From an uncultured bacterium (lineage in GTDB: Bacteria > B130-G9), in the NCBI GenBank assembly GCA_965372715.1, contig CBDVDH010000001.1, positions 1-64,000 on the forward strand: a stretch of 64,000 nt of DNA. Reading direction: 5' to 3'. Under the pieces are notes generated by a model, which saw only the letters and a list, made by a program, of their open reading frames with translations, searched no databases and was not told the DNA's origin. This document shows, one piece after another, positions 5,362-60,594 of the stretch (the stretch's first letter is position 1; each line of letters starts with the position of its first letter). The position numbers and the translations under genes are program-made.

Positions 5362-5622
5362 CTATTTGAGCATGGAAGGCAGGCCCTTCGCCACGTTCTG
5401 GTATGCCTCGATTGCCAGCTTCGTTTGCAGCATCGAACCGGAGATGCCTTTGCTGGTGTCGGGAGTCAAGATCGACTTTCTGGCGGCCTTTGAGATATGA
5501 ACCGTATCCTTTGGGGGCTGCTTTTTGGCCTGGCGCTCAGCCTTATGAGGTTTGGCGCTTTGTTCGATCTTGCGCAGTTTGTCGCCGTATATCCTGTGGA
5601 TATACTGCAAGGAAACAGTCAT
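5362..5622 (-). CDS. Small basic protein, FlgM-like or flagellar-regulon associated
   Basis: 86 aa from ATG 5622 with AAGGAGG RBS; KDTVHISKAAR resembles the D-x-V-x-I-S-x-x-A motif of FlgM-like proteins; sigma28 promoter upstream. Confidence 0.6.
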   Translation of the reverse strand: MTVSLQYIHRIYGDKLRKIEQSAKPHKAERQAKKQPPKDTVHISKAARKSILTPDTSKGISGSMLQTKLAIEAYQNVAKGLPSMLK

Positions 5623-5690
5623 AGTTCCCTCCTTCTCGACAGCAAAAACAGCCACACAACAGGTGTGCGTTTACACAACCTCGTGCTACC

Positions 5691-5775: not shown

Positions 5776-7260
5776 GTGCCACTTAAGGCTCTCAAATACT
5801 GTCTTGGTGAACTATTGCTAGGTTTGGCTTTCAGTTTGGCGGCGCAGCTACAGGATTCGCGAGGCTTTCGGCTGCCGGAGCATGAAACATTCAAGGCCAG
5901 ATGGAGTCAATTCTGTGGTCAGCTTGATGACGGCTTGGATTATGAGTCCATACTTGGCTCGGACGACAAACTGCGTCGCGTATTCTTGCTGGCTGTCCTG
6001 TGCTCTGAGCCTAGGCTGTGTCCTTTGACCATCTGCCCGACGCTTGATGAGCATATCATCACCCGGCTTTTCGACTCCCTCTTCGGGAAGGACGCTCCCC
6101 CGCCGGTCTCGTTGATTTTTTTCTGGATGGACGACGCTTGGGACTACCTGTGTGAACCAGCCTCCCTGGACGCCATCCTGGGCGGCGCGGAGCTATTAAG
6201 AGGCGCCACATCTCTGGACCAGCCTCTTGGGCGGCTTGCTAGACATTGCCATTTGCGCGCCTCGGCCAAGAACTCGTTCCTGGCTGCTGCGCGTCTTCTG
6301 GAGGACTGCCTGGTCTTGAACAGCTGCAGGCGCGGTTTGGTGGTCGCGCCGGCCGCGGCGGCTCCTGCGATTTCGGATGCCATTGCAAGGTTCGTTGCTG
6401 TGGCGACGCTGTCGTCATCCGTCCGGTGCAAGGTTATGAACGTGTATCCGATTGAGATAGCGTTCGGCTATCGTGCGAATGAGCGATGGTTCGACGATTT
6501 CGCTTCGGATGTAAAGCGACACGGAAGCGACGGTTTTGAGATGCTCGGCTTCGAGCTCGCGCACAGCTCGATTCAGGACCGAGATAGTCTTTGGAAAGCG
6601 TTTACGGCCAGGAAACAGTTCACAGAACTTGTCAATCTCGCCATCTCTGATGATGTTCCGGGCAGATCGATTTCGCCGATTCAGAATCGGTATGAGGCGT
6701 TTGGTCTGATTGCTCACTGCACGGAATGCTATGAGCGTCCTGCGAGCTTCAGTTTGCCGGGCGAGCGTCTGCTGTGCGAGCCGTGCAACTGGAAGGCGTC
6801 AGTTGGCGCAAAAGCTCTTCAAAAGGCGCGCAAAATCGCCGGTCAGTCTTTCTTGGGCGATGCCGACCATCTAGCGGTAATCGCCCTAGCCTGCGATCCG
6901 TTCTGTTCCACGCTTGCTCAGCCATCCTCGCTTAGCGCTGCCGCGTCCGCCGCGCGGAAGGCGTCAAATGCGATCGGGAAGGCTTTGGAGGATGTGCGAA
7001 GCGCTCTGCCCAGAACCTGCCTGGTGAGCAGACTGTCGCCATCCGAGGCGCTGTTGATTGTCAGAAGTGATGACACCGGTCAATGTTCTGAGGTACTTAA
7101 GAACGCCTTGAGGCAGGAGCTGAAGACGGAGGGAGCAAGTGTGAACGCGGAAGTGCGGGTGGGTTCTTCAGGAGCCGAACATGTTGTCCCAATTTGCGTC
7201 GTTGCTCGCGAGGCGGTCTCGAGCGTGCTGACCGGCAATTGCGAGGCGATTTGCGCATGA
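5776..7260 (+). CDS. cas10: Degenerate, truncated Cas10 (type III-D-like large subunit), catalytic motifs lost
   Basis: Palm1-like DYLCEPASLDAILGGAELL (cf. YVFES.KL.EIRGAS.LL); Zn finger CTECYERPA...LCEPCNWK; Palm2 IALACDPF in place of YADGN; RLSPSEALLIV in place of GGDDLLLIV; first gene of a RAMP operon. Confidence 0.72.
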   Translation: MPLKALKYCLGELLLGLAFSLAAQLQDSRGFRLPEHETFKARWSQFCGQLDDGLDYESILGSDDKLRRVFLLAVLCSEPRLCPLTICPTLDEHIITRLFDSLFGKDAPPPVSLIFFWMDDAWDYLCEPASLDAILGGAELLRGATSLDQPLGRLARHCHLRASAKNSFLAAARLLEDCLVLNSCRRGLVVAPAAAAPAISDAIARFVAVATLSSSVRCKVMNVYPIEIAFGYRANERWFDDFASDVKRHGSDGFEMLGFELAHSSIQDRDSLWKAFTARKQFTELVNLAISDDVPGRSISPIQNRYEAFGLIAHCTECYERPASFSLPGERLLCEPCNWKASVGAKALQKARKIAGQSFLGDADHLAVIALACDPFCSTLAQPSSLSAAASAARKASNAIGKALEDVRSALPRTCLVSRLSPSEALLIVRSDDTGQCSEVLKNALRQELKTEGASVNAEVRVGSSGAEHVVPICVVAREAVSSVLTGNCEAICA

Positions 7261-9059
7261 GTCGCAGGCCCGCTCTTGAGCTGGCTCTCAACATAAGCTT
7301 TGCGTCAGCGGCTTCGCTCCCCGCGCTCGGACGGCCGGACGGGGGCGCGCTGCCCTACGTCTCGGGTTCCACGCTTAAGGGCGCCATGAAAGCGGTTGCG
7401 GAGAGGATACTGGACCTCAACGGGATAGCTCATTGCTCTGGGGGCCAGCGCCTGGACTCGTGCGAGAGCAAACCTTGTCTTATTTGCTCTCTTTTTGGCC
7501 AGCGTCTTTGCCCCGGCAAGATCGTTTTCGAGGGTGGAACCCTCCTAGAAGCCTGGGGGCCTGACATAGCCCAGCTACGGCGGAAGGGCAGGATGCGAAA
7601 TGGGACCATTCGCGCATTCGCTCCGCAGACTTTCGCGGCAAGGATTGTTGCCCTGTCTCCACTAACCACAGACGAGGAACAGCTTCTGGTCTCGGCTGCG
7701 GGGAGCGTCAGGACGCTGGGCGGTGGAAAAACGCAGGGGCTGGGCTTTTGCTCAATTGAGGTAGAAAGAAAGGAATCCACCCAGGCTGAAGCACTTCCGA
7801 GGATGGAAGCCCTCGAAGGCGAGGGTAATGAGGTCGGCATTATTCTCTTTGCAGAAGGGCCGATCTGCATAGCCAGGTCGCCCGTCGGGCAATGGTATCG
7901 TGAGAGCCTCGATTACGTGCCCGGCGCAGCGATTAAGGCCGCGTTTCACGACCAATTAAGGCGGCTGGAACAGCTGGACGTCATCGGGACGGAAACGGCC
8001 AACGCGTTTCTCGCCCCATCTGTGTCCTTCTCTGATTGCTTGCCTGTGGGCCGTTCCGATTCCGCGCCCTTGCAGTCAGACAGCGATCCGCTCGAGCTGC
8101 CATTTGTTCTGCCGTTTTCCGCGACAACTCCTGGTCTGCGCCTCGACAATCAGAAAGACATGGCCGTCGAACCGCCGGACACGCTTATCCGACGTTTCGT
8201 GCTGCGTGAATGTTATCACAATGGTTTCCCCTACGTGGCTGGGCGAGGTTGTCCCCAAAGGGCTTTCGATCAGATGGTCAGCGGCGGTTGCGATACGTCA
8301 TGGAGGGGTCAATTGGTTTCCGTCTCAAGTGACGTGGCCTCATTCTGTCCCGTTGAGCGAGTCAGCACAAGGTCTGTGCCTGAGCGTCGTCATTGCGTTT
8401 CTTTCGTGCATCCTCACACTTTGTTCGCGGGTACCATCAGACGACTGCGACCGGCCGCAAAACAGGCGCTCAGACAGCTCGTAACTGAGAAGTTGAGCGT
8501 CGGCGCCTTGCGTAGCCGGGGCTTTGGAAGGCTATCGTTGAGAATCGTTCATCCTCCCGCCAGAGCGGACGTTGGCGAGGCGGTCGGACGTTTCAATGTG
8601 GCAATTGGGACCGAGCTCAACAGGTGGGGCAGAGTTTGGGACGGCGCATCGTCTATCGCCCAGGGGATCGAGAAGGACGGCCGGCTATTCTTCTCGATAG
8701 GGTTGTTGTCAGACCTGATGCTGCCAAAATGGTCGTTCTGGGATGGCGGCCAGGCCACGCCGTTTGAGCAGCTGTTGTCTGAGGCTGGAACCTCCGCTCA
8801 GGAGGTGCTGTCACTCGTGAAGTTCGGGACAAAAGGTGGCTGGAATGCGGTCTGCCAGGCGCCTCGTGGATTGACGCCCATCATTCGGCGGGGGAGCGTT
8901 TGCCTGTTTGAGACTAGAGTGGCCGGGGCGGCAAGGCAAGAGCTGTATGCGAAGCTCGATGACATTCAGGATGCGGGTCTAGGCCTGCGCACGAGCGACG
9001 GGTTTGGCGCCATAGCGGTTTGCAGCAGTTTTCATACCATAGGATACCTTGAGTCATAA
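7257..9059 (+). CDS. csx10: Cas7-Csx10 (Cas5 group) RAMP fusion
   Basis: N-terminal Cas7 (PYVSGSTLKGAMK, PCLICSLFG, GGGKTQGLG); C-terminal Csx10 (SLDYVPGAAIKAA, VGALRSRGFG, GGWN, GSVCLF, GLGLRTSDGFG..VC..FH); ATGA overlap with cas10. Confidence 0.85.
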   Translation: MSRRPALELALNISFASAASLPALGRPDGGALPYVSGSTLKGAMKAVAERILDLNGIAHCSGGQRLDSCESKPCLICSLFGQRLCPGKIVFEGGTLLEAWGPDIAQLRRKGRMRNGTIRAFAPQTFAARIVALSPLTTDEEQLLVSAAGSVRTLGGGKTQGLGFCSIEVERKESTQAEALPRMEALEGEGNEVGIILFAEGPICIARSPVGQWYRESLDYVPGAAIKAAFHDQLRRLEQLDVIGTETANAFLAPSVSFSDCLPVGRSDSAPLQSDSDPLELPFVLPFSATTPGLRLDNQKDMAVEPPDTLIRRFVLRECYHNGFPYVAGRGCPQRAFDQMVSGGCDTSWRGQLVSVSSDVASFCPVERVSTRSVPERRHCVSFVHPHTLFAGTIRRLRPAAKQALRQLVTEKLSVGALRSRGFGRLSLRIVHPPARADVGEAVGRFNVAIGTELNRWGRVWDGASSIAQGIEKDGRLFFSIGLLSDLMLPKWSFWDGGQATPFEQLLSEAGTSAQEVLSLVKFGTKGGWNAVCQAPRGLTPIIRRGSVCLFETRVAGAARQELYAKLDDIQDAGLGLRTSDGFGAIAVCSSFHTIGYLES

Positions 9060-9523
9060 TGGATAGCGGCTTCCGGGTTTTGCACGCGATCGATTCTTTA
9101 AGAAAGAATCTGAAGAAACTAGCGGACGCCGCTGTTCGAGAGCGCATTGGCTCAGATGAGTTCCTGTTTTTCAAGGATGGGCTTCGGGTTCTTTGGCTTT
9201 ACGCAATGCAGGCGAGCTCAGTCGATGCGGTGATGCTGTATCTTATGTCATTGATCGGCGGTTCACCGCGCAACCAGCGATGGCGTCGAAACAACATTGG
9301 GCAGAAGGTCCTCGATGACTTGAGGTCTTTTGTCCTTCAGATTTCACAGGAGATCGCTCGCGTCTCCGAAGTTGATTGGGTGCCCGGATTCTGGCTGGTT
9401 GCGGGGCGGATCTACTTGTCATATTTATGGCAATCCCATACTTTTGAGAGGCCAGAATTATCGGGGCCGGTGAAAGGTCCGGGGCCGACCGAGATTGAAA
9501 GCGACGGTGCAAGTGGATCATAA
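9059..9523 (+). CDS. cas11: Cas11-like small subunit
   Basis: Helical 154 aa; SSVDAVMLYLMSLIGG...W...IGQKVLDDL resembles the S...V..FI.YQIGR...W...G..L pattern of III-D small subunits; TAATG overlap; position after csx10. Confidence 0.62.
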   Translation: MDSGFRVLHAIDSLRKNLKKLADAAVRERIGSDEFLFFKDGLRVLWLYAMQASSVDAVMLYLMSLIGGSPRNQRWRRNNIGQKVLDDLRSFVLQISQEIARVSEVDWVPGFWLVAGRIYLSYLWQSHTFERPELSGPVKGPGPTEIESDGASGS

Positions 9524-10661
9524 ATGGATACAGGGCAGTCTTAGCGGAACGCTTCGGGTTGTTTCCGGACTGCACGTTGGCGGGAATTGTGGGAAAAAAG
9601 GCGGAGCGCAAGTCACCTCCTTTGTTCGTGACGAGAAGGGCCGACCTTTTGTGCCCGGCTCGACCCTGAAAGGCGCAATACGGTCACAGGCGCAGATGGG
9701 CATAAAAACCTACACGGACGGGGCAAATGGCGTGATATGGGCCTGTGATTTTCCCGAATCGCTCGACCGCGAATCGCTCTCGTTCTGTCTCCGGGCCGAT
9801 GATGCCTCAGGGCCGTGCGCCGTGTGCAGCCTCTTTGGGTCAACAGTCAATCCCTCACGAGTCTTTGCTCGTGACCTTGAGCTCTGCGATGAGTGGTCGG
9901 AATCGCTTATGCAGCACAGAGCTACGTTGGGCATCTCAAGGGGCTTTCGCCGCGGCATCGAAGGTACCGGGCGAATGATCGAGGTGGTTCCTCCGGGGCT
10001 CGATTTTCGGTTTGAGATTCTCGTCTCTGAGCCACTGGATTGGGAGCTCGGGCTGCTGTTCTGGGTCGTTGGGAGACTGGATGAGGGGTTTGGCCGGCTC
10101 GGAGGTGGCCGGAGACTCGGCCTGGGTCATGTGAGTATGCAAGTCACACAGGTCCTGATGCAGCGCCTGGGCCAGGGACTGGACAGCGTGTCGGAGGTTT
10201 ATCTGCCGCGGTCCGGGATTGAAACTCCCGATAAGAGCGAGCGCCCCGAAATCGATAAGCTGATTGGCATTCCCAAGCCCGACATCGACGATATAGGCGC
10301 GGTTCTGTGTTATTGCCTAAAAGTTATGGAGATGAAAGATATGCAGGCCGACGCTGGGGAGATCGGGAAGCTTCTGTTATCGGAGTTTGGACTAAGCAAG
10401 CGTCGTCGAGAGGAGCTCGGTCTGCCGGAGAAGGTCTCAGAGCTGCTCGACAAAATGGTCCTCGAGAGTAAGCTGGCGAAGAGTTACCTGGGGCACTACA
10501 GCATCTCGCCGGATTACGTTCAAGAAAAAGCTCCGCAAAAGGAGAAGAAAGCGGGGGGTGTCGAGCTGAGGCGCCTCGATCTGGACGATTTCCGGGCGCA
10601 GTGTGAGGAGGCGCTGCGTCGGATGCTCTTCAAGGATGCCGAGGCGGCAAGCGATGCATAG
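9495..10661 (+). CDS. cas7: Cas7-group RAMP (Csm3/Csx7-like) with an extra helical domain near the C-terminus
   Basis: SGLHVGG, VRDEKGRPFVPGSTLKGAIRS, PCAVCSLFGS, EVVPPG..F, LGGGRRLGLG; exact start uncertain (9495, 9507 or 9513). Confidence 0.88.
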   Translation: MKATVQVDHKWIQGSLSGTLRVVSGLHVGGNCGKKGGAQVTSFVRDEKGRPFVPGSTLKGAIRSQAQMGIKTYTDGANGVIWACDFPESLDRESLSFCLRADDASGPCAVCSLFGSTVNPSRVFARDLELCDEWSESLMQHRATLGISRGFRRGIEGTGRMIEVVPPGLDFRFEILVSEPLDWELGLLFWVVGRLDEGFGRLGGGRRLGLGHVSMQVTQVLMQRLGQGLDSVSEVYLPRSGIETPDKSERPEIDKLIGIPKPDIDDIGAVLCYCLKVMEMKDMQADAGEIGKLLLSEFGLSKRRREELGLPEKVSELLDKMVLESKLAKSYLGHYSISPDYVQEKAPQKEKKAGGVELRRLDLDDFRAQCEEALRRMLFKDAEAASDA

Positions 10662-11634
10662 CAGGCTCTATAATAGGGCTGTCTTGGGCCTGAACATCAA
10701 GCCGCGCGGGCCGCTGCTTGTCCGGGCGAGTCGAACTATGTCCGACGCTTCGTTGATGTTTGAGCACAACGTTGAGATGCCGCACGGCGTCTCAGCAGCT
10801 GTCCCTTTCATTCCGGGTTCTTCACTGAAGGGAGTAATCCGAAGCCATTTCGAGCGCGTCGCAGCGTCTTGCGGCATTGGAGCTTGTGACCCGTTTTCGC
10901 GCTCGGCCTGCGGGCGCCGCGACTCGTCCCAAGAATCCGCGGAGATGTCCGAGGCCAAGGTCTATTCGGAGGTCCTGTGCGCATCGTGCAAGGTCTTTGG
11001 TTGCGAGGCGGCAGCCGGGAGATTCTGCATAAGAGATGCAATGGCCTCCACGAGCAATCCGCCGACTCGTCAGTTAAGAGCAACACTTCCGATCGATCGC
11101 TTCCTGGGCAGCGGCAGGTCTGCCTCGGCGACGGATTTCGAGGCCGTAGTGGGCGGCGAGTTTGAGACGCAAATCGTGCTCGAGAACTTCGAGCTTTGGC
11201 AGCTCGCGATGATCGGCATTGTGTTGATGGACCTTGACGACGGGTATGCGCAGATAGGCGGTCTTCGGTCGAAGGGCTACGGTCTTGTGGCGGTCGAGTT
11301 CAGCAATTGTGAACTTTTCTTTGCCAAGTCCGGGCTCTCTACCGAAAGAGTTTACGGAATCGGCAGTCTGGTGAGTGAACAGCAGCGGAGCGAGTTCCGC
11401 TATATGAGCGAGGATTGGCTGCTTTTGCGGTGGCCTTCCACCACAGACGCAGATGTAAGGCGCGGGCCCCGAATCGATTACGACGTCGTCTCTGACGTTT
11501 TTGGCCTCAAATATGTCATCAAGTCGCACGATGCCATCAGATTGCTCCTTGCGATGCTGCCCAAAAGCCTTCTCGACTATGCTTCTCACCACAGGACATC
11601 GCCCGGAAAGGGCATCGAAGAAGGAGGAGAGTAG
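10654..11634 (+). CDS. cas7: Cas7-group RAMP
   Basis: MHSRLYN, GPLLV, PFIPGSSLKGVIRSHFER, CASCKVFG, IDRF.G, LENFELWQL, IGGLRSKGYG. Confidence 0.9.
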   Translation: MHSRLYNRAVLGLNIKPRGPLLVRASRTMSDASLMFEHNVEMPHGVSAAVPFIPGSSLKGVIRSHFERVAASCGIGACDPFSRSACGRRDSSQESAEMSEAKVYSEVLCASCKVFGCEAAAGRFCIRDAMASTSNPPTRQLRATLPIDRFLGSGRSASATDFEAVVGGEFETQIVLENFELWQLAMIGIVLMDLDDGYAQIGGLRSKGYGLVAVEFSNCELFFAKSGLSTERVYGIGSLVSEQQRSEFRYMSEDWLLLRWPSTTDADVRRGPRIDYDVVSDVFGLKYVIKSHDAIRLLLAMLPKSLLDYASHHRTSPGKGIEEGGE

Positions 11635-11642
11635 GTCGCGCG

Positions 11643-12041
11643 ATGCCTAAATATGGCCTATGCAGGACGATCGACGGCGACGAGTTCTATCGAAAGGTAT
11701 TTGAGCTGGAGAAGGCATTTTGCATTCAGGAACGGCTGGACCGGATGGAGCTTTCTGAGGGGACGCCATCGAACTTGCTGAGCCGAGGCAGGGTGTTCAA
11801 CAGCGAGGTGGAATTGCGTTGGGATAACGGGCATTTTGCCATGTTATGGGAAGCAGAGAGCGTTGACGACATTCCGCAAGGCGCGTTGGTGTTTCACTGC
11901 GATGATAAGCCATTTCCTCTACTCTTATGGCGGGACCCCATGTCCAACGCCCAACATCCCAGAGGCGCCGCTCAAATCGTTACCGTCAAATACACCAAAG
12001 ACGGCGTCGTGCGGTTCATAAGATTCAAAGGTGTCAAGTGA
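11643..12041 (+). CDS. csx19: Csx19 (type III-D signature subunit)
   Basis: GRVFNSEVELRW, LLLW, and C-terminal Y...G.VRFIRFKGV; GGAG-containing RBS; lies between Cas7 genes. Confidence 0.75.
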   Translation: MPKYGLCRTIDGDEFYRKVFELEKAFCIQERLDRMELSEGTPSNLLSRGRVFNSEVELRWDNGHFAMLWEAESVDDIPQGALVFHCDDKPFPLLLWRDPMSNAQHPRGAAQIVTVKYTKDGVVRFIRFKGVK

Positions 12042-13171
12042 GATCGCAGGAGGAACGGGTGAGGCGGGGTTCCTGGTTACCCAGGGAACCTGAAGGATAT
12101 GATTTCGTACAGCTTCCCTATGCAAAGAGCAGCATCCCATCCTATCACGTCCGAAAGACCGCGGCCGGTGCATCGTTCTCGGGCAAGATGTCGATCAAGA
12201 TCGAGGCCCTGTCGCCGGTTCACATATCTGACGGCACGCTGAGGCTTTCGGAGGAGCTGGGCTTTGAGAAAGGGTTCGTAGTTAAGTCGATACTCTGTCC
12301 CGAAGAGCCGATAATCCCGGGGACGACCCTCAAAGGCGCCGCTAGGACCTATTATGAGGCCATTACCAGAAGCTGCGTGAGCCAACACCTCAAACACATG
12401 CGCACGCGGTATGTCGCCCGAAACAGGGGCGCATCGAATCTGCCTCAACAGCTTGTGAAGCAGATCGTCGCGGCGGGCGGTGATGAGGAAGGATTTGCTG
12501 AAATCGCGATTTTACCGGAATGCTATGAACGCCGAGACCGATGCCCGCCGGCCAAGAGGAAGTCATCGAAGCTGTGCCCCGCCTGTCTGCTCTTTGGCGT
12601 GAGAGGGTTTGCAGGACGGGTCTCGTTTGCCGATGCGAAGCTTGTGGATGCTCCCAAGAAGGGTGAGCTTCTTTATGTTCCGCCGCGCGGGGCGCCTCAT
12701 CTTCACAGGCTCGGCCGTGCATCTGTTGCGCCGGGTCTGAGCTCTGCGAAGTTGTATATTGACAACTTGAAGGGTCGGAAAATCTATACAGCGGAGTACG
12801 AGCCTCGTGGGCCCTCTCAGGAAATGGAGCTCTGGGACTACGTCCCGGCTGGGGCGGTTTTCTCTGGTCTGATGGTCTTCCATGGTCTTTCGATGGCCGA
12901 GATGGGGGGCCTTTTTGCTTGCTTGGGTCTCGATAGCAAGATGGCGATCAGGGTTGGGGCCGGCAAGGCATCGGGCCTGGGCAAGATAAGCATCTCTTCA
13001 AAGGAGCTTGTTGCCTTTCCATCGGGACTCATGCAGCGCGTGTCTGAGGATTCGAGAAGGCCGATCGATGACCTGTCCGGTCTCATAAAACAGTGCAAGA
13101 CGTCCTTTTTCAAGTCTTCGTTTGTATATCCTAAATCCTTCGATATGCTGAAGAAGATATGTGCGGTGTGA
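12038..13171 (+). CDS. cas7: Cas7-group RAMP (terminal III-D type, YDFV/GRKFY family)
   Basis: GYDFV, FSGKM, LSPVHISDG, IIPGTTLKGAARTYYEAITRSC, LCPACLLFG, GRVSFADA, GRKIY, VGAGKASGLG; GTGA overlap with csx19. Confidence 0.88.
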   Translation: MRSQEERVRRGSWLPREPEGYDFVQLPYAKSSIPSYHVRKTAAGASFSGKMSIKIEALSPVHISDGTLRLSEELGFEKGFVVKSILCPEEPIIPGTTLKGAARTYYEAITRSCVSQHLKHMRTRYVARNRGASNLPQQLVKQIVAAGGDEEGFAEIAILPECYERRDRCPPAKRKSSKLCPACLLFGVRGFAGRVSFADAKLVDAPKKGELLYVPPRGAPHLHRLGRASVAPGLSSAKLYIDNLKGRKIYTAEYEPRGPSQEMELWDYVPAGAVFSGLMVFHGLSMAEMGGLFACLGLDSKMAIRVGAGKASGLGKISISSKELVAFPSGLMQRVSEDSRRPIDDLSGLIKQCKTSFFKSSFVYPKSFDMLKKICAV

Positions 13172-13512
13172 GGGCAGAGCTGGCTGACGAGGCGTCGCCA
13201 GAAAGGAAGGTCGAGCTGACGAAGGAGGTCGCCATGCGGCTTTCAAACGCGAAGATCGATCCGAATGAAGTAGCAAGGACGATTCGCAACTTGCATTGGA
13301 CCGGGAACCTACAAAACGCAAGGGAGGTCTTAAGGCGCTTCTCACGGGACCGGAGACATTATGGTCGCAGTCTGTCGATGAAACGCCAGCACGCCGCCAT
13401 AGAGAGGGAGTTCTTCGCGATTCTCTCGGTTTGCAGTGACGTCAATGAACTTCTGGTCTTGGGCATGCGGATTGTTCGGCTTATGCCATATTATCTTCAA
13501 GGCTATGAATAA
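13168..13512 (+). CDS. Second small helical protein, Cas11-like
   Basis: IDPNEV, GRS, LGMRIVRLMPY resembles the D.NE..K ... LGW.VRLM.Y small proteins of type III operons; GTGA overlap with upstream cas7. Confidence 0.55.
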   Translation: MRAELADEASPERKVELTKEVAMRLSNAKIDPNEVARTIRNLHWTGNLQNAREVLRRFSRDRRHYGRSLSMKRQHAAIEREFFAILSVCSDVNELLVLGMRIVRLMPYYLQGYE

Positions 13513-13529
13513 CTAGTGGGGAAGAAGCA

Positions 13530-14153
13530 ATGAGTACCGTAATACCTTTGCCTGAGGTCAGCTATGCCGGGGGGCTCGACCTTAACACCGCTATTTATGA
13601 ACGTATCAGTGTGAGGCGCTTTGAGAGCAGGCCAATCGGGCTCGGCGCCGTGGCGAATCTCTTGTGGTCAACGCAGGGGTATATCCGCTCAGGGAAACGG
13701 GCTGTTCCCTCCGCCGGGGCGACCTATCCGCTCCTGATATACTTGGCGGTGGCCGAGGACGGCGTCGAGGACCTGTCGGCTGGGCTCTACTGCTACAATC
13801 ATCACTACGACGCTGACAGGCACAGTCTCCAGCTCAATCACGATGCTTCGGTCGTGAGTGAACTGGCCGAGGCGTGTTACGGTCAAGGCTGTGTTGAGCA
13901 GGCGATGGCAGTGATTGCGGTCGTCGTCGACAATTCGAGGACGGAAAAAAGATACGGCGGCCGGGCCGAGAGATACGTCGCTATGGAAGCGGGGCACGTT
14001 GGACAGAACGTCTCGCTTATGGCTGTCTCGCTTGGCCTGGGAACCGTGATGGTCGGCGCTTTCAAAGACGACGAAGTGGCAGCCGCCCTTCGCCTCGAGA
14101 AAGGCCTCAAGCCGTACTACGTGATGCCGATCGGCTATCCGTACGCGGGCTAG
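13530..14153 (+). CDS. SagB/ThcOx-like nitroreductase-fold FMN dehydrogenase
   Basis: RISVRRF, LLWSTQG, RAVPSAGATYPL, MEAGHVGQNVSL, GLGTVMVGAFKDDEV. Confidence 0.9.
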   Translation: MSTVIPLPEVSYAGGLDLNTAIYERISVRRFESRPIGLGAVANLLWSTQGYIRSGKRAVPSAGATYPLLIYLAVAEDGVEDLSAGLYCYNHHYDADRHSLQLNHDASVVSELAEACYGQGCVEQAMAVIAVVVDNSRTEKRYGGRAERYVAMEAGHVGQNVSLMAVSLGLGTVMVGAFKDDEVAAALRLEKGLKPYYVMPIGYPYAG

Positions 14154-50727: not shown

Positions 50728-50821
50728 GTTGTTTTTTCCGCATTCGCGGAAAGGGGGATAAACGGAAAAAGGGGGGAAAGGAGAAAAGGGAAGGAGGGGC
50801 AATGGATGACAGGGGCAAGGT

Positions 50822-51020
50822 GTGGGGCGGGCTTTCCAGCCTGCCCATTGTCGATTTGGGATTTGGGATTTGGGATTTGGGATTGCGGATTATCCGCGCC
50901 TCGGAACACCCATCTTCAGATGGGGGAATGGGTGAGCGTCCAGAGAATCCTGAATCCCTCTTCGGCCCTGAAGGGGCGTCACGTGAGTAGCCCCAGGCAA
51001 GCCAGCGGCGCAGCCTGGGG
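50822..51020. repeat. Cluster of REP-like hairpins and a (GATTTGG)n heptamer tract
   Basis: GTGGGGCGGGCTTTCCAGCCTGCCC; GATTTGG x4 plus variants (50853-50894); CCCATCTTCAGATGGG; GCCCTGAAGGGGC; CCCAGGC...GCCTGGG. Confidence 0.7.
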
Positions 51021-59119: not shown

Positions 59120-59458
59120 GAGCTCTCATTTTCAGCATTAACGATTTGGTTTGGTAGCGCACCTTATCGGGGCAAGTCTCGGCCTTAGTGAAACCTGCCC
59201 CGCCCGGTGTTTCGCAGCAATCGATCACGAGTCCCATGGGAGCTTTCTGAGTATCCGCTCCATTGAGCAACAGATCCCATCCCGCAGCCCCGATCGCTTA
59301 GACACAACGTCTCTTGCCCGGCAAGGCGTGCCCTAATTGACCTGGGGTTGACGGAAAGGCACGACCAAGAGCTGTTGTGGCTCATGATCGATGCTCAATC
59401 GGTGCTTCGGGCTTTTCAATCGCTCACGTTTGTTCAATGATTTGACACAAGCTTGCGT

Positions 59459-59662
59459 CTAGGTCTTTTCTAGGCGCATATTCGTTGCGCGTGCGCCCTT
59501 GGGTCCCCGCTCCACGGAGAACTCCACCTTGCTGCCCTCCTCAAGGGAGTCATATTCAACGCCTTCGAGAGCTGATTGATGGAAGAAGACCTCGTTGCCA
59601 TCCTCTGCGCGGATGAACCCGAAGCCTCGGTCTCTGATGAGCTTCTTTATCTCTCCTTTCAA
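59459..59662 (-). CDS. Cold-shock domain protein, copy A
   Basis: RGFGFI (RNP1), VFFHQS (RNP2), GPKG; TTG start after AAAGGAGGT. Confidence 0.93.
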   Translation of the reverse strand: MKGEIKKLIRDRGFGFIRAEDGNEVFFHQSALEGVEYDSLEEGSKVEFSVERGPKGARATNMRLEKT

Positions 59663-59877
59663 GTCTATCACCTCCTTTCATTAGTATTCTGTAGTTATTC
59701 AACTTTTCGCAATAGCGCATTCTGGGCCTGTTCCAGACCATATATGTGAGACAGGTTTGCCGACTCAAACAAGGGGCATGTCAGTTTGGCCTATCCAATT
59801 TCACACGCAGTCCGGATGCGTCCGTCGGTTCGAGGCAGCTTCCCAAACTGCCCCGGACACTTGGCAAGAGCTCGCTT

Positions 59878-60081
59878 CTAGAGCTCTTGTAGGCGCATGT
59901 TCGTGGCGCGCTCGCCCTTGGGTCCCCGCTCCACGGAGAACTCCACCTTGCTGCCCTCCTCAAGGGAGTCATATTCAACGCCTTCGAGAGCTGATTGATG
60001 GAAGAAGACCTCGTTGCCATCCTCTGCGCGGATGAACCCGAAGCCTCGGTCTCTGATGAGCTTCTTTATCTCTCCTTTCAA
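59878..60081 (-). CDS. Cold-shock domain protein, copy B
   Basis: Same motifs and RBS, 419 bp from copy A. Confidence 0.93.
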   Translation of the reverse strand: MKGEIKKLIRDRGFGFIRAEDGNEVFFHQSALEGVEYDSLEEGSKVEFSVERGPKGERATNMRLQEL

Positions 60082-60594
60082 GTCTAGCACCTCCTTTCAT
60101 TAGTAGTCAGTAGCAATGCAATTGCTCGCATTCGCGCATTGTGGGAGGTGTTCCAGGCCATATACATGAGATAGGTTTGCCGATTTAAGCAAGGGGGGAA
60201 GTCAGCTTGGCCTACCCGGTTCCACACTTGGTTCCGGATGCGCCTATCAATTCGGAGCAGTTCAACCTGCCCCGCACACTAAAATCTCTCACTAACGCCT
60301 TCGTCCTGGCCGAAAAACGCATCTCGACCAAACACATCCTTCTCACAGTCTGCTGGCCACACGGCCCAATACACCTAAGGTCTCGCCACCCTCGACCCCA
60401 GACATCCAGCTGTCGAAGGAGGTTCAAGACCAAAACTTCTAAACGGTAAACATAAGGCCTAGTAGATACGATGTCAAGTACTTTCTTTTGAGGGAGAAAG
60501 CGAGAAGATGAGGAAAGGGGATAGGAATCTTCAGCCTAAATGTCGCGCTGCCCGGGAGACACTGCGAAAATCGGTTGGCACGAATCGCATTCCC

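Follow-up and report, generated by a model that had tools for sequence, protein, structure and literature searches.

Type III CRISPR-Cas complexes turn the binding of a target RNA into slicing by their Cas7 subunits or into signaling or DNase activity by Cas10. Type III-E retains two Cas7 sites and a protease, and to our knowledge every reduced type III form keeps at least one nuclease. In the type III-Dv complex of Synechocystis, the catalytic residues are D26 of Cas7-Cas5-Cas11, D33 of Cas7-2x.1, and D246 of Cas7-2x.2 (PMC11026444), and type III-D2 is a published case of a single active Cas7 domain among several (PMC13294483). Here we describe nine open reading frames (ORFs), tightly packed and partly overlapping on the forward strand (bases 5776 to 14153), in the first 64,000 nucleotides (the window) of contig CBDVDH010000001.1 from an uncultured bacterium of GTDB lineage B130-G9 (GCA_965372715.1). 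The source genome is a 3.56-Mb draft assembly of 112 contigs, 95.9% complete, and its phylum was sampled through seven species genomes from one family and four genera.

Genes were identified by Pfam, NCBIfam, and PADLOC searches and by comparison with the annotated III-D loci of Allocoleopsis and Synechocystis. On the evidence of Cas5, Cas7, Cas11, Csx19, and the gene order, the nine ORFs make up an effector operon, and the CRISPR-Cas complex it encodes derives from type III-D. An earlier reading of this DNA from its letters alone (the sequence-only reading) had proposed that three Cas7 domains lost the RNA-cleaving Asp in parallel and that the complex binds RNA without slicing it, like a natural dead Csm. 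We find it moderately probable, from the alignments given below, that the operon encodes a III-D derivative that would bind RNA and neither slice nor signal, with every canonical catalytic center replaced.

Catalytic positions of the Cas7 domains and the Cas10-like subunit

The Synechocystis catalytic residues were located on the pSYSA translation and compared with the three candidate domains. In the Cas7.1-Csx10 fusion, residues 21 to 51 align without gaps to residues 25 to 55 of Synechocystis Cas7-Cas5-Cas11 in both BLAST and HMMER, which places catalytic D26 opposite Pro22 (bases 7320 to 7322). This column is Pro in 10 and Gln in 1 of the 11 full-length orthologs, none of which has an acidic residue at positions 20 to 24. 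D28 of the fusion was considered as the catalytic Asp and rejected, since it matches the noncatalytic D32 of Synechocystis and an acidic residue (D or E) occupies its position in just 6 of the 11 orthologs. The separate Cas7 of Allocoleopsis reads LADKP at this place and aligns to the DxP of Csm3 from M. jannaschii and S. epidermidis. The claim that this domain lacks the whole catalytic loop was overstated: the loop is shortened, its half after strand 1 being 7 to 10 columns shorter than in the references, but the half beside the SGSTLKG motif is of full length. The thumb (LRRKGRMRNGTIRAF, residues 107 to 121, bases 7575 to 7619) is as short as had been reported, although this holds for the close clade of the window (5 of 11 orthologs) and the other six thumbs are about 15 residues longer. 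A phmmer search of the PDB with the fusion returned no matches, and its profile returned weak matches only.

Csx7a carries the string GGAQVTSFVRD (residues 36 to 46, bases 9600 to 9632) where Csm3 of T. onnurineus reads ggidnpvikd. HMMER sets the Csm3 Asp opposite Q39, and MAFFT alignment with canonical Csx7 sequences (SDLPVIKD in L016, L017, P0014, and P0015) sets it opposite V40; in BLAST against Synechocystis Cas7-2x, D33 falls in a gap of the Csx7a alignment. None of these registers gives an acidic residue at the expected position, and the two candidate columns (V/T/I/R/S/L and Q/L/V/A/R) are nonacidic in all 11 full-length orthologs. The AlphaFold2 (AF2) model of Csx7a (pLDDT 68) has a β-hairpin at residues 29 to 43, and its top Foldseek matches are Cas7 proteins; the best PDB match by sequence is 9wxh_D, from type III-D2 (E 7e-11). 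The true start of Csx7a may be a GTG at 9513 instead of the ORF start at 9495.

For Csx7b, the string DASLMFEHN is present as reported (residues 31 to 39, bases 10744 to 10770), and PDMxFVRT is the true consensus of its relatives. When 1.84 billion representatives were searched with a profile, 2,629 relatives were recovered, among which a single cluster belongs to this family (next match, E 5.7e-48). Columns were counted in the 144 relatives of 240 to 370 amino acids among the best 150 of these 2,629, with 6 excluded by length. Their loop consensus is d-p-t-x-P-D-M-x-F-V-R-T, and the column opposite Phe36 holds D in 107, E in 12, and N in 10 (acidic in 119 of the 144); the same column is F, L, or I in all nine orthologs. 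Profile-profile alignment against 60 relatives (hhalign) gave the same register, gapless over residues 1 to 80 (probability 100, E 8.9e-76), and HMMER against ToCsm3 confirmed it. The five residues from D241 to D246 in Synechocystis equal the spacing of the two Asp columns (31 and 36) in the relatives of Csx7b, which identifies the Asp of PDM with the catalytic Asp. The second best PDB match of the Csx7b profile is again 9wxh_D.

Several observations weigh against an inert complex, and most of them concern this site. Two of five alignment methods give Csx7b other registers: in the HMMER profile alignment to 8bmw_G (SsoCsm chain G), the Asp meets E41, where four of the nine orthologs have E, four have Q, and one has I, and in the BLAST alignment to Synechocystis, D246 meets S33 with a five-residue gap. 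Of the nine orthologs, eight retain Glu37, the residue next after the lost Asp, eight retain His38, and all retain Asn39. Eight also have an acidic residue at position 31 (D31), in a column that is D in 76 of the 144 relatives. In addition, SsoCsm Cas7b has a plausible Asp and yet does not cleave (PMC9945777), which makes the Asp, whether present or absent, an imperfect guide to whether a subunit cleaves.

Could the catalytic residues be present after all, displaced in loops beyond the reach of sequence alignment? Loop lengths do differ from those of the references, three registers were obtained for Csx7b, and the evidence consists of sequence alignments. Against such displacement, Cas7.1 and Csx7a of the window have no acidic residue within two to three positions of the expected place, the orthologs have none at Cas7.1 positions 20 to 24 or in either Csx7a column, and no register of Csx7b, including the gapless profile alignment, yields an Asp. 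We therefore regard an alignment artifact as very improbable. The sequence-only reading had named the Asp of MSDAS or another acidic residue as a possible counterpart of the catalytic Asp; in Csx7b, the alignments never place an Asp at the site, but Glu37 and the acidic position 31 remain nearby.

These residues lead to a second alternative, in which Cas7.1 and Csx7a are inert and Csx7b cleaves through a shifted site at Glu37, together with His38, Asn39, or Asp31. Their conservation speaks for it, as do the III-D2 precedent of one active domain among several and the His found near the 2′-OH at two known sites (PMC11026444). In L008, however, the ortholog that diverges most, these positions read Gln-Gln-Asn and Asn31, with no acidic residue at either place. 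The +1 column, moreover, is Met in 101 of the 144 relatives, so that the parent family has no metal ligand there, and at +5, where 101 of 144 have Arg, the basic residue has given way to E, Q, or I in this family, which indicates that the whole strand has been remodeled. We consider cleavage at a shifted site unlikely. As to the proposed loss of the Asp from three Cas7 domains, the canonical residue is replaced in all three, in every ortholog examined, with the qualification that Glu37 adjoins the site in Csx7b.

The Cas10-like protein had no family match in Pfam, NCBIfam, or PADLOC. Its AF2 model, built from 12 orthologs (pLDDT 77, pTM 0.81), returned Cas10, Csm1, or Cmr2 structures as all 50 of the Foldseek PDB matches listed (best E 6.9e-8) and matches the III-Dv Cas10 (8s9t_C) with a TMq of 0.43; BLAST also finds a weak resemblance between the Palm1 region and Allocoleopsis Cas10. 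Where the Cas10 proteins of Synechocystis and Allocoleopsis have GGDD and a hydrophobic strand, this protein reads L-S-P-S-E-A-L-L-I-V, so that S-P-S-E (residues 421 to 424, within bases 7033 to 7062) occupies the place of GGDD. These columns are S-[PAD]-[STC]-[EQ] in all 12 full-length orthologs. No HD domain was detected by family search, and the treble-clef CxxC...CxxC zinc finger is kept (residues 315 to 337). Separately, a low-confidence segment of the model contains an invariant HCHLRA (residues 157 to 162, bases 6244 to 6261), and further Cys residues at 178, 184, and 218 are also invariant. These residues may form an extra metal site, for which no counterpart could be aligned in Cas10.

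Conservation of the operon and possible sources of guides

To determine how the operon is distributed and inherited, we compared it across genome and metagenome collections. The families to which Csx7a, the Cas10-like protein, and the fusion belong are small and closed, with 12 to 15 clusters and identities down to 40 to 46%, and their sources, where named, are "Candidatus Coatesbacteria" or unclassified bacterial metagenome-assembled genomes. All 12 related loci show one order of genes, which begins with the Cas10-like gene, where the locus extends that far, and ends with the SagB-like gene. Four related genomes added no further full-length Cas10-like or fusion sequence, and identities there were the same as for the known loci. 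The lysS gene lies upstream of the operon in L004, L013, and L014, loci from three genomes. All seven sampled genomes of the phylum, from four genera, carry Csx7b, although this count describes a small, related sample from one family and to that extent weakens the case.

Rates of divergence are consistent with vertical descent. By genus, Csx7b is 96, 68 to 70, 69, and 56% identical to the window protein, and LysS is 96, 75 to 76, 80, and 66% identical; the Csx7b ranks track the LysS ranks except in the genus whose LysS value (80%) is from a partial sequence with only 234 comparable residues. Nei-Gojobori ratios of nonsynonymous to synonymous substitution (dN/dS) for the nine operon genes ranged from 0.06 to 0.52 (23 comparisons), and from 0.08 to 0.28 in the more diverged pairs. 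For lysS, dN was 0.020 and dS was 0.083 (ratio, ~0.24), and the operon evolves at about the lysS rate. The operon is syntenic, vertically inherited, and under purifying selection.

A decaying III-D remnant without function would account for the joint disappearance of several catalytic motifs and for the lack of an array or cas1 nearby. All nine ORFs, however, are intact in every covering locus among the 12, with no stops or frameshifts; the dN/dS ratios are those of constrained genes; and the operon is kept across four genera down to 41 to 56% identity. We rejected a pseudogene remnant on the dN/dS ratios and intact ORFs and rate decay as extremely improbable. Universal vertical retention beside lysS instead suggests exaptation, and the operon was probably exapted.

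The closest relative, L004, whose operon is ~96% identical, has a gene for a 1,171-amino-acid protein (L004:13169-16684) between the SagB-like gene and manC; the window does not have it. Read by eye, its product has an adenylate/guanylate-cyclase-like N terminus followed by a STAND/TPR region.

Scans for CRISPR arrays were negative in the window (TRF and direct-repeat scans), in the source assembly (k-mer chain scan and two-copy scan), and in five long related loci (repeat scans); they turned up only protein-coding repeats and palindromic elements. Nor was cas1 found in the source genome or at the operon locus. An orphan cas6 lies on another contig with no array nearby (G000:C18:42582-43346, minus strand, equal to L026:2583-3347). 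Its product matches PADLOC Cas6b (E 7e-54) and scores above the cut-off of TIGR01877. The gene is kept in all seven genomes and stands between MlaD/MCE-like and ATP-binding cassette (ABC) transporter ATPase genes in 5 of 5 relatives with full context; in one partial locus, the ATPase gene also adjoins cas6. Cas1 is present in 4 of the 7 genomes, and 3 show none. Arrays stand beside Cas1 in two of the seven (L037:8-588, 10 repeats; L038:2330-2846, 9 repeats), with 61-nt spacing that we take to be I-E-like. A pattern search allowing three mismatches gave no matches to the relatives' array repeat in the source genome.

The remaining counterpoints to an exapted complex are found among these results. 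The presence of cas6 in 7 of 7 genomes fits continued use of CRISPR RNAs (crRNAs), arrays do occur in two relatives, and arrays are often lost from draft assemblies such as this one of 112 contigs. The operon might accordingly serve ordinary defense, receiving crRNAs in trans through the orphan Cas6, sensing invader RNA by binding, and acting through a new effector (orf117, the SagB-like protein, or the Csx7a C-terminal domain). Beyond the distribution of Cas6, Cas1, and arrays, there are precedents: type III-G also has no array and has been proposed to borrow crRNAs (PMC12669027), and type III-E offers an example of an associated enzyme triggered by binding. The relatives' arrays, however, are of the presumed I-E-like kind with a repeat unmatched in the source genome, Cas1 is not seen in three genomes, and cas6 belongs to a conserved mlaD-cas6-ATPase order. 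Defense islands, furthermore, are normally patchy, whereas this operon is in every genome sampled, beside lysS in three, and diverges at about the rate of that gene. We regard a defense role as possible but doubtful.

One two-copy array candidate (C72) was rejected as a dispersed 27-nt REP-like palindrome that occurs in tandem without spacers in a relative. This GC-rich element has 124 BLAST matches in the source genome, many at contig ends, with one copy in the window (50819 to 50846), and is conserved across four genera. A putative RAYT-like (IS200-type) ORF was recognized by sequence reading at C18:38017-38613. Directly upstream of the operon, lysS and the Cas10-like gene are 739 bp apart, and most of this gap is taken up by a 97-amino-acid ORF (5362 to 5655, minus strand), which leaves ~120 bp of likely promoter and thus no room upstream for a hidden array or long leader. 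Elsewhere in the window (59450 to 60280), a 419-bp unit occurs as two tandem copies, 86% identical, with no ORF of at least 100 amino acids.

Gene content and possible outputs of the operon

The nine genes and the evidence for their identities are listed in Table 1. Four RAMP matches in the operon exceed the Pfam cut-off. The TIGR02674 (Csx10) match of the fusion (E 3.6e-29, 102 bits) lies below the 177-bit cut-off; by BLAST, fusion residues 74 to 181 resemble Allocoleopsis Cas7 and residues 193 to 595 resemble Allocoleopsis csx10, and the two parts are joined in one ORF in all 11 full-length orthologs. The Cas7.2-, Cas7.3-, and Cas7.4-like proteins each have a gene of their own, and csx19 separates the last of these from the other two, in a position that matches Csx19 in the Synechocystis and Allocoleopsis loci. 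The GTG start of the Cas7.4-like gene overlaps the csx19 stop, and across 9 of 9 loci this start codon overlaps the stop or lies no more than 3 bases away. We know of no system in which a Cas7.4-type domain is catalytic. The orf117 gene overlaps the Cas7.4-like gene by 13 nt and is syntenic in every locus reaching this far, and the SagB-like dehydrogenase gene is the last of the conserved block, with 64 to 97% identity in all loci reaching it.

Table 1. Genes of the type III-D-derived operon and the basis of each assignment
Feature	Position	Strand	Evidence
Cas10-like large subunit, 494 aa	5776..7260	+	Cas10 fold of AF2 model
Cas7.1-Csx10 (Cas5) fusion, 600 aa	7257..9059	+	RAMP domain at residues 28-98; TIGR02674; PADLOC Cas5_IIId E 9.6e-30
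Cas11 small subunit, 154 aa	9059..9523	+	PADLOC Csm2 (III-D small subunit) E 3.2e-6; same place in canonical III-D locus
Csx7a (Cas7.2-like), 388 aa by ORF	9495..10661	+	Csx7 TIGR02581 E 8.4e-25
Csx7b (Cas7.3-like, zinc-finger type), 326 aa	10654..11634	+	Csx7 TIGR02581 E 4.7e-28
Csx19-like protein, 132 aa	11643..12041	+	PADLOC Csx19 E 5.5e-5; NCBIfam TIGR03984 E 0.012
Cas7.4-like RAMP (TIGR03986-like), 377 aa	12038..13171	+	TIGR03986 E 2.8e-27; PDB matches to Cas7.4 region of Cas7-11
orf117, small helical protein, 117 aa	13159..13512	+	PADLOC Csx21 E 1.2e-3, weak
SagB-family (nitroreductase-fold) dehydrogenase, 207 aa	13530..14153	+	Pfam Nitroreductase E 9.6e-23; TIGR03605 102 bits, cut-off 78

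Candidate effectors were sought among these genes. Family searches gave no β-CASP or metallo-β-lactamase match among the nine ORFs, and general family scans, none of them aimed at these proteins, gave no match to CorA or a toxin-antitoxin pair. No Rfam family reached its gathering score within the window. Csx7a has a highly conserved C-terminal extension of ~135 amino acids (residues 255 to 388, bases 10257 to 10661) that is found only in this Csx7 family and is predicted in the AF2 model as four helices and a short strand pair. A basic stretch in it (GLSKRRRKELGL) was assigned as helix-turn-helix (HTH)-like by reading the sequence; the ESM Atlas gave no usable match to the domain, and Pfam gave only a subthreshold winged-helix match (E 0.097). 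A complex prediction for this domain with orf117 and the SagB-like protein gave no significant result (score 0.00, in a run without controls).

Parts that would handle RNA are kept under purifying selection, among them the PGS(S/T)LKG motifs, zinc fingers, thumbs, Cas11, and Csx19. We propose that the complex would assemble on a guide RNA, base-pair with a target RNA, and stay bound; it would neither slice the target at 6-nt intervals nor make cyclic oligoadenylate (cOA) or SAM-AMP. Output would then come from occupancy alone or through the lineage-specific parts, namely, the HTH-like domain of Csx7a, orf117, and the dehydrogenase, and the role may be regulatory or otherwise outside defense. 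The sequence thus favors the proposed RNA binding without slicing, and the idea of a dead complex is strengthened by the loss of GGDD from the Cas10-like protein, the lack of an HD match, the absence of an array from the assembled sequence, and vertical inheritance. The likeness to Csm fared less well, since the nearest comparison is type III-D, and the retained Glu37-His38-Asn39 of Csx7b qualifies the claim.

A more specific version can be put forward only tentatively. The operon might encode a domesticated III-D ribonucleoprotein, free of nuclease and signal, with a housekeeping or regulatory function in the whole candidate phylum Coatesbacteria; its guide would be a host-encoded, non-CRISPR RNA cut by the orphan Cas6, its targets would be host transcripts, and its output would pass through the HTH-like domain of Csx7a, the SagB-type oxidoreductase, or both. 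If true, a type III effector would here have been exapted for a chromosomal, nondefense function for the first time. A III-D derivative that has lost slicing and signaling would be nature's equivalent of engineered dead Csm or Cas7-11, and would mean that a type III scaffold can persist for RNA binding alone, under purifying selection, phylum-wide. The locus offers a lead on nondefense uses of class 1 RNA-targeting complexes, and its nine genes and cas6 form a test system for the guide of the complex and for the role of the SagB-type enzyme or the HTH-bearing Cas7.

Comparison with known systems

The operon is colinear with the type III-D locus on a plasmid of Allocoleopsis PCC 7113 and with Synechocystis III-Dv on pSYSA, and reciprocal best matches are one-to-one. 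The Allocoleopsis locus runs cas10, Cas7, csx10, a small ORF, csx7, a RAMP gene, a small ORF, and a RAMP gene, followed by cas6 and cas2-cas1. With III-Dv (8S9T-8S9X), the operon has in common a small Cas10 without an HD domain (558 amino acids in III-Dv), a Cas7-Cas5 fusion, two thumb-bearing Cas7 domains, Csx19, and a terminal Cas7 of the TIGR03986 type. In contrast to III-Dv, Cas11 and the two thumb-bearing Cas7 proteins are encoded by separate genes, and the array, cas6, and cas1-cas2 near III-Dv on pSYSA have no counterparts near the operon. In III-Dv, D26, D33, and D246 each cut and the GGDD of Cas10 makes cOA (PMC11026444), whereas the corresponding positions here are Pro, Gln or Val, Phe, and S-P-S-E.

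Type III-D2 (PDB 9WXH) is similar in other respects. Its Cas7.1 is likewise fused to Cas5, and its Cas7.2 and Cas7.3 are naturally without the catalytic Asp and have a β-hairpin instead (PMC13294483), as does the model of Csx7a. Cas7.1 of III-D2, however, keeps D29 and cuts once (PMC13294483), at the domain where the operon has Pro. III-D2 also has a Cas10 with GGDE that makes SAM-AMP, and CorA and a toxin-antitoxin pair downstream (PMC13294483); the Cas10-like protein here does not have GGDE. The III-D2 Cas7x3 joins Cas7.2, Cas7.3, and Cas7.4, whereas here they are unfused and accompanied by Csx19, with a Csx21-like ORF and a SagB-type dehydrogenase gene downstream. Because Csx7a and Csx7b have Cas7x3 among their nearest relatives of solved structure, part of the Asp-less state may be inherited rather than have arisen in parallel.

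Reduced systems of types III-G, III-H, and VII also have Cas7 proteins without the Asp and no adaptation module, and III-G is without an array (PMC12669027). The Cas10 cyclase is inactivated in III-G and III-H, as here, but both keep an apparently active HD domain with predicted DNA cutting (PMC12669027), whereas no HD domain was detected in the operon. Type VII cuts with Cas14 (PMC12669027), and no added nuclease was found here; type VII Cas7 is only a structural or sequence neighbor of the operon proteins. In PADLOC, Csx7b scores E 2.8e-32 with Csm3 (III-A/III-D) versus E 4e-13 with Cas7_IIIg, and the III-G and III-H models score far lower. Effectors of types IV-A, IV-B, V-C, and V-M and of CRISPR-associated transposons have lost cleavage and act by binding or recruitment (PMC12669027). 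Those binding-only systems have DNA targets and are mostly borne on plasmids or transposons, whereas this operon has an RNA-targeting architecture and is chromosomal and vertically inherited.

The literature searched held no description of this variant; the supplementary data of the 2025 classification (PMC12669027), which lie outside that search, may list it. As judged from its alignments, the operon descends from type III-D and departs from two III-D hallmarks, an active palm and at least one Cas7 Asp site. Loss of the Asp from Cas7.2 and Cas7.3 is already known from III-D2 (PMC13294483); what is new here are the losses in Cas7.1 and in Cas10.

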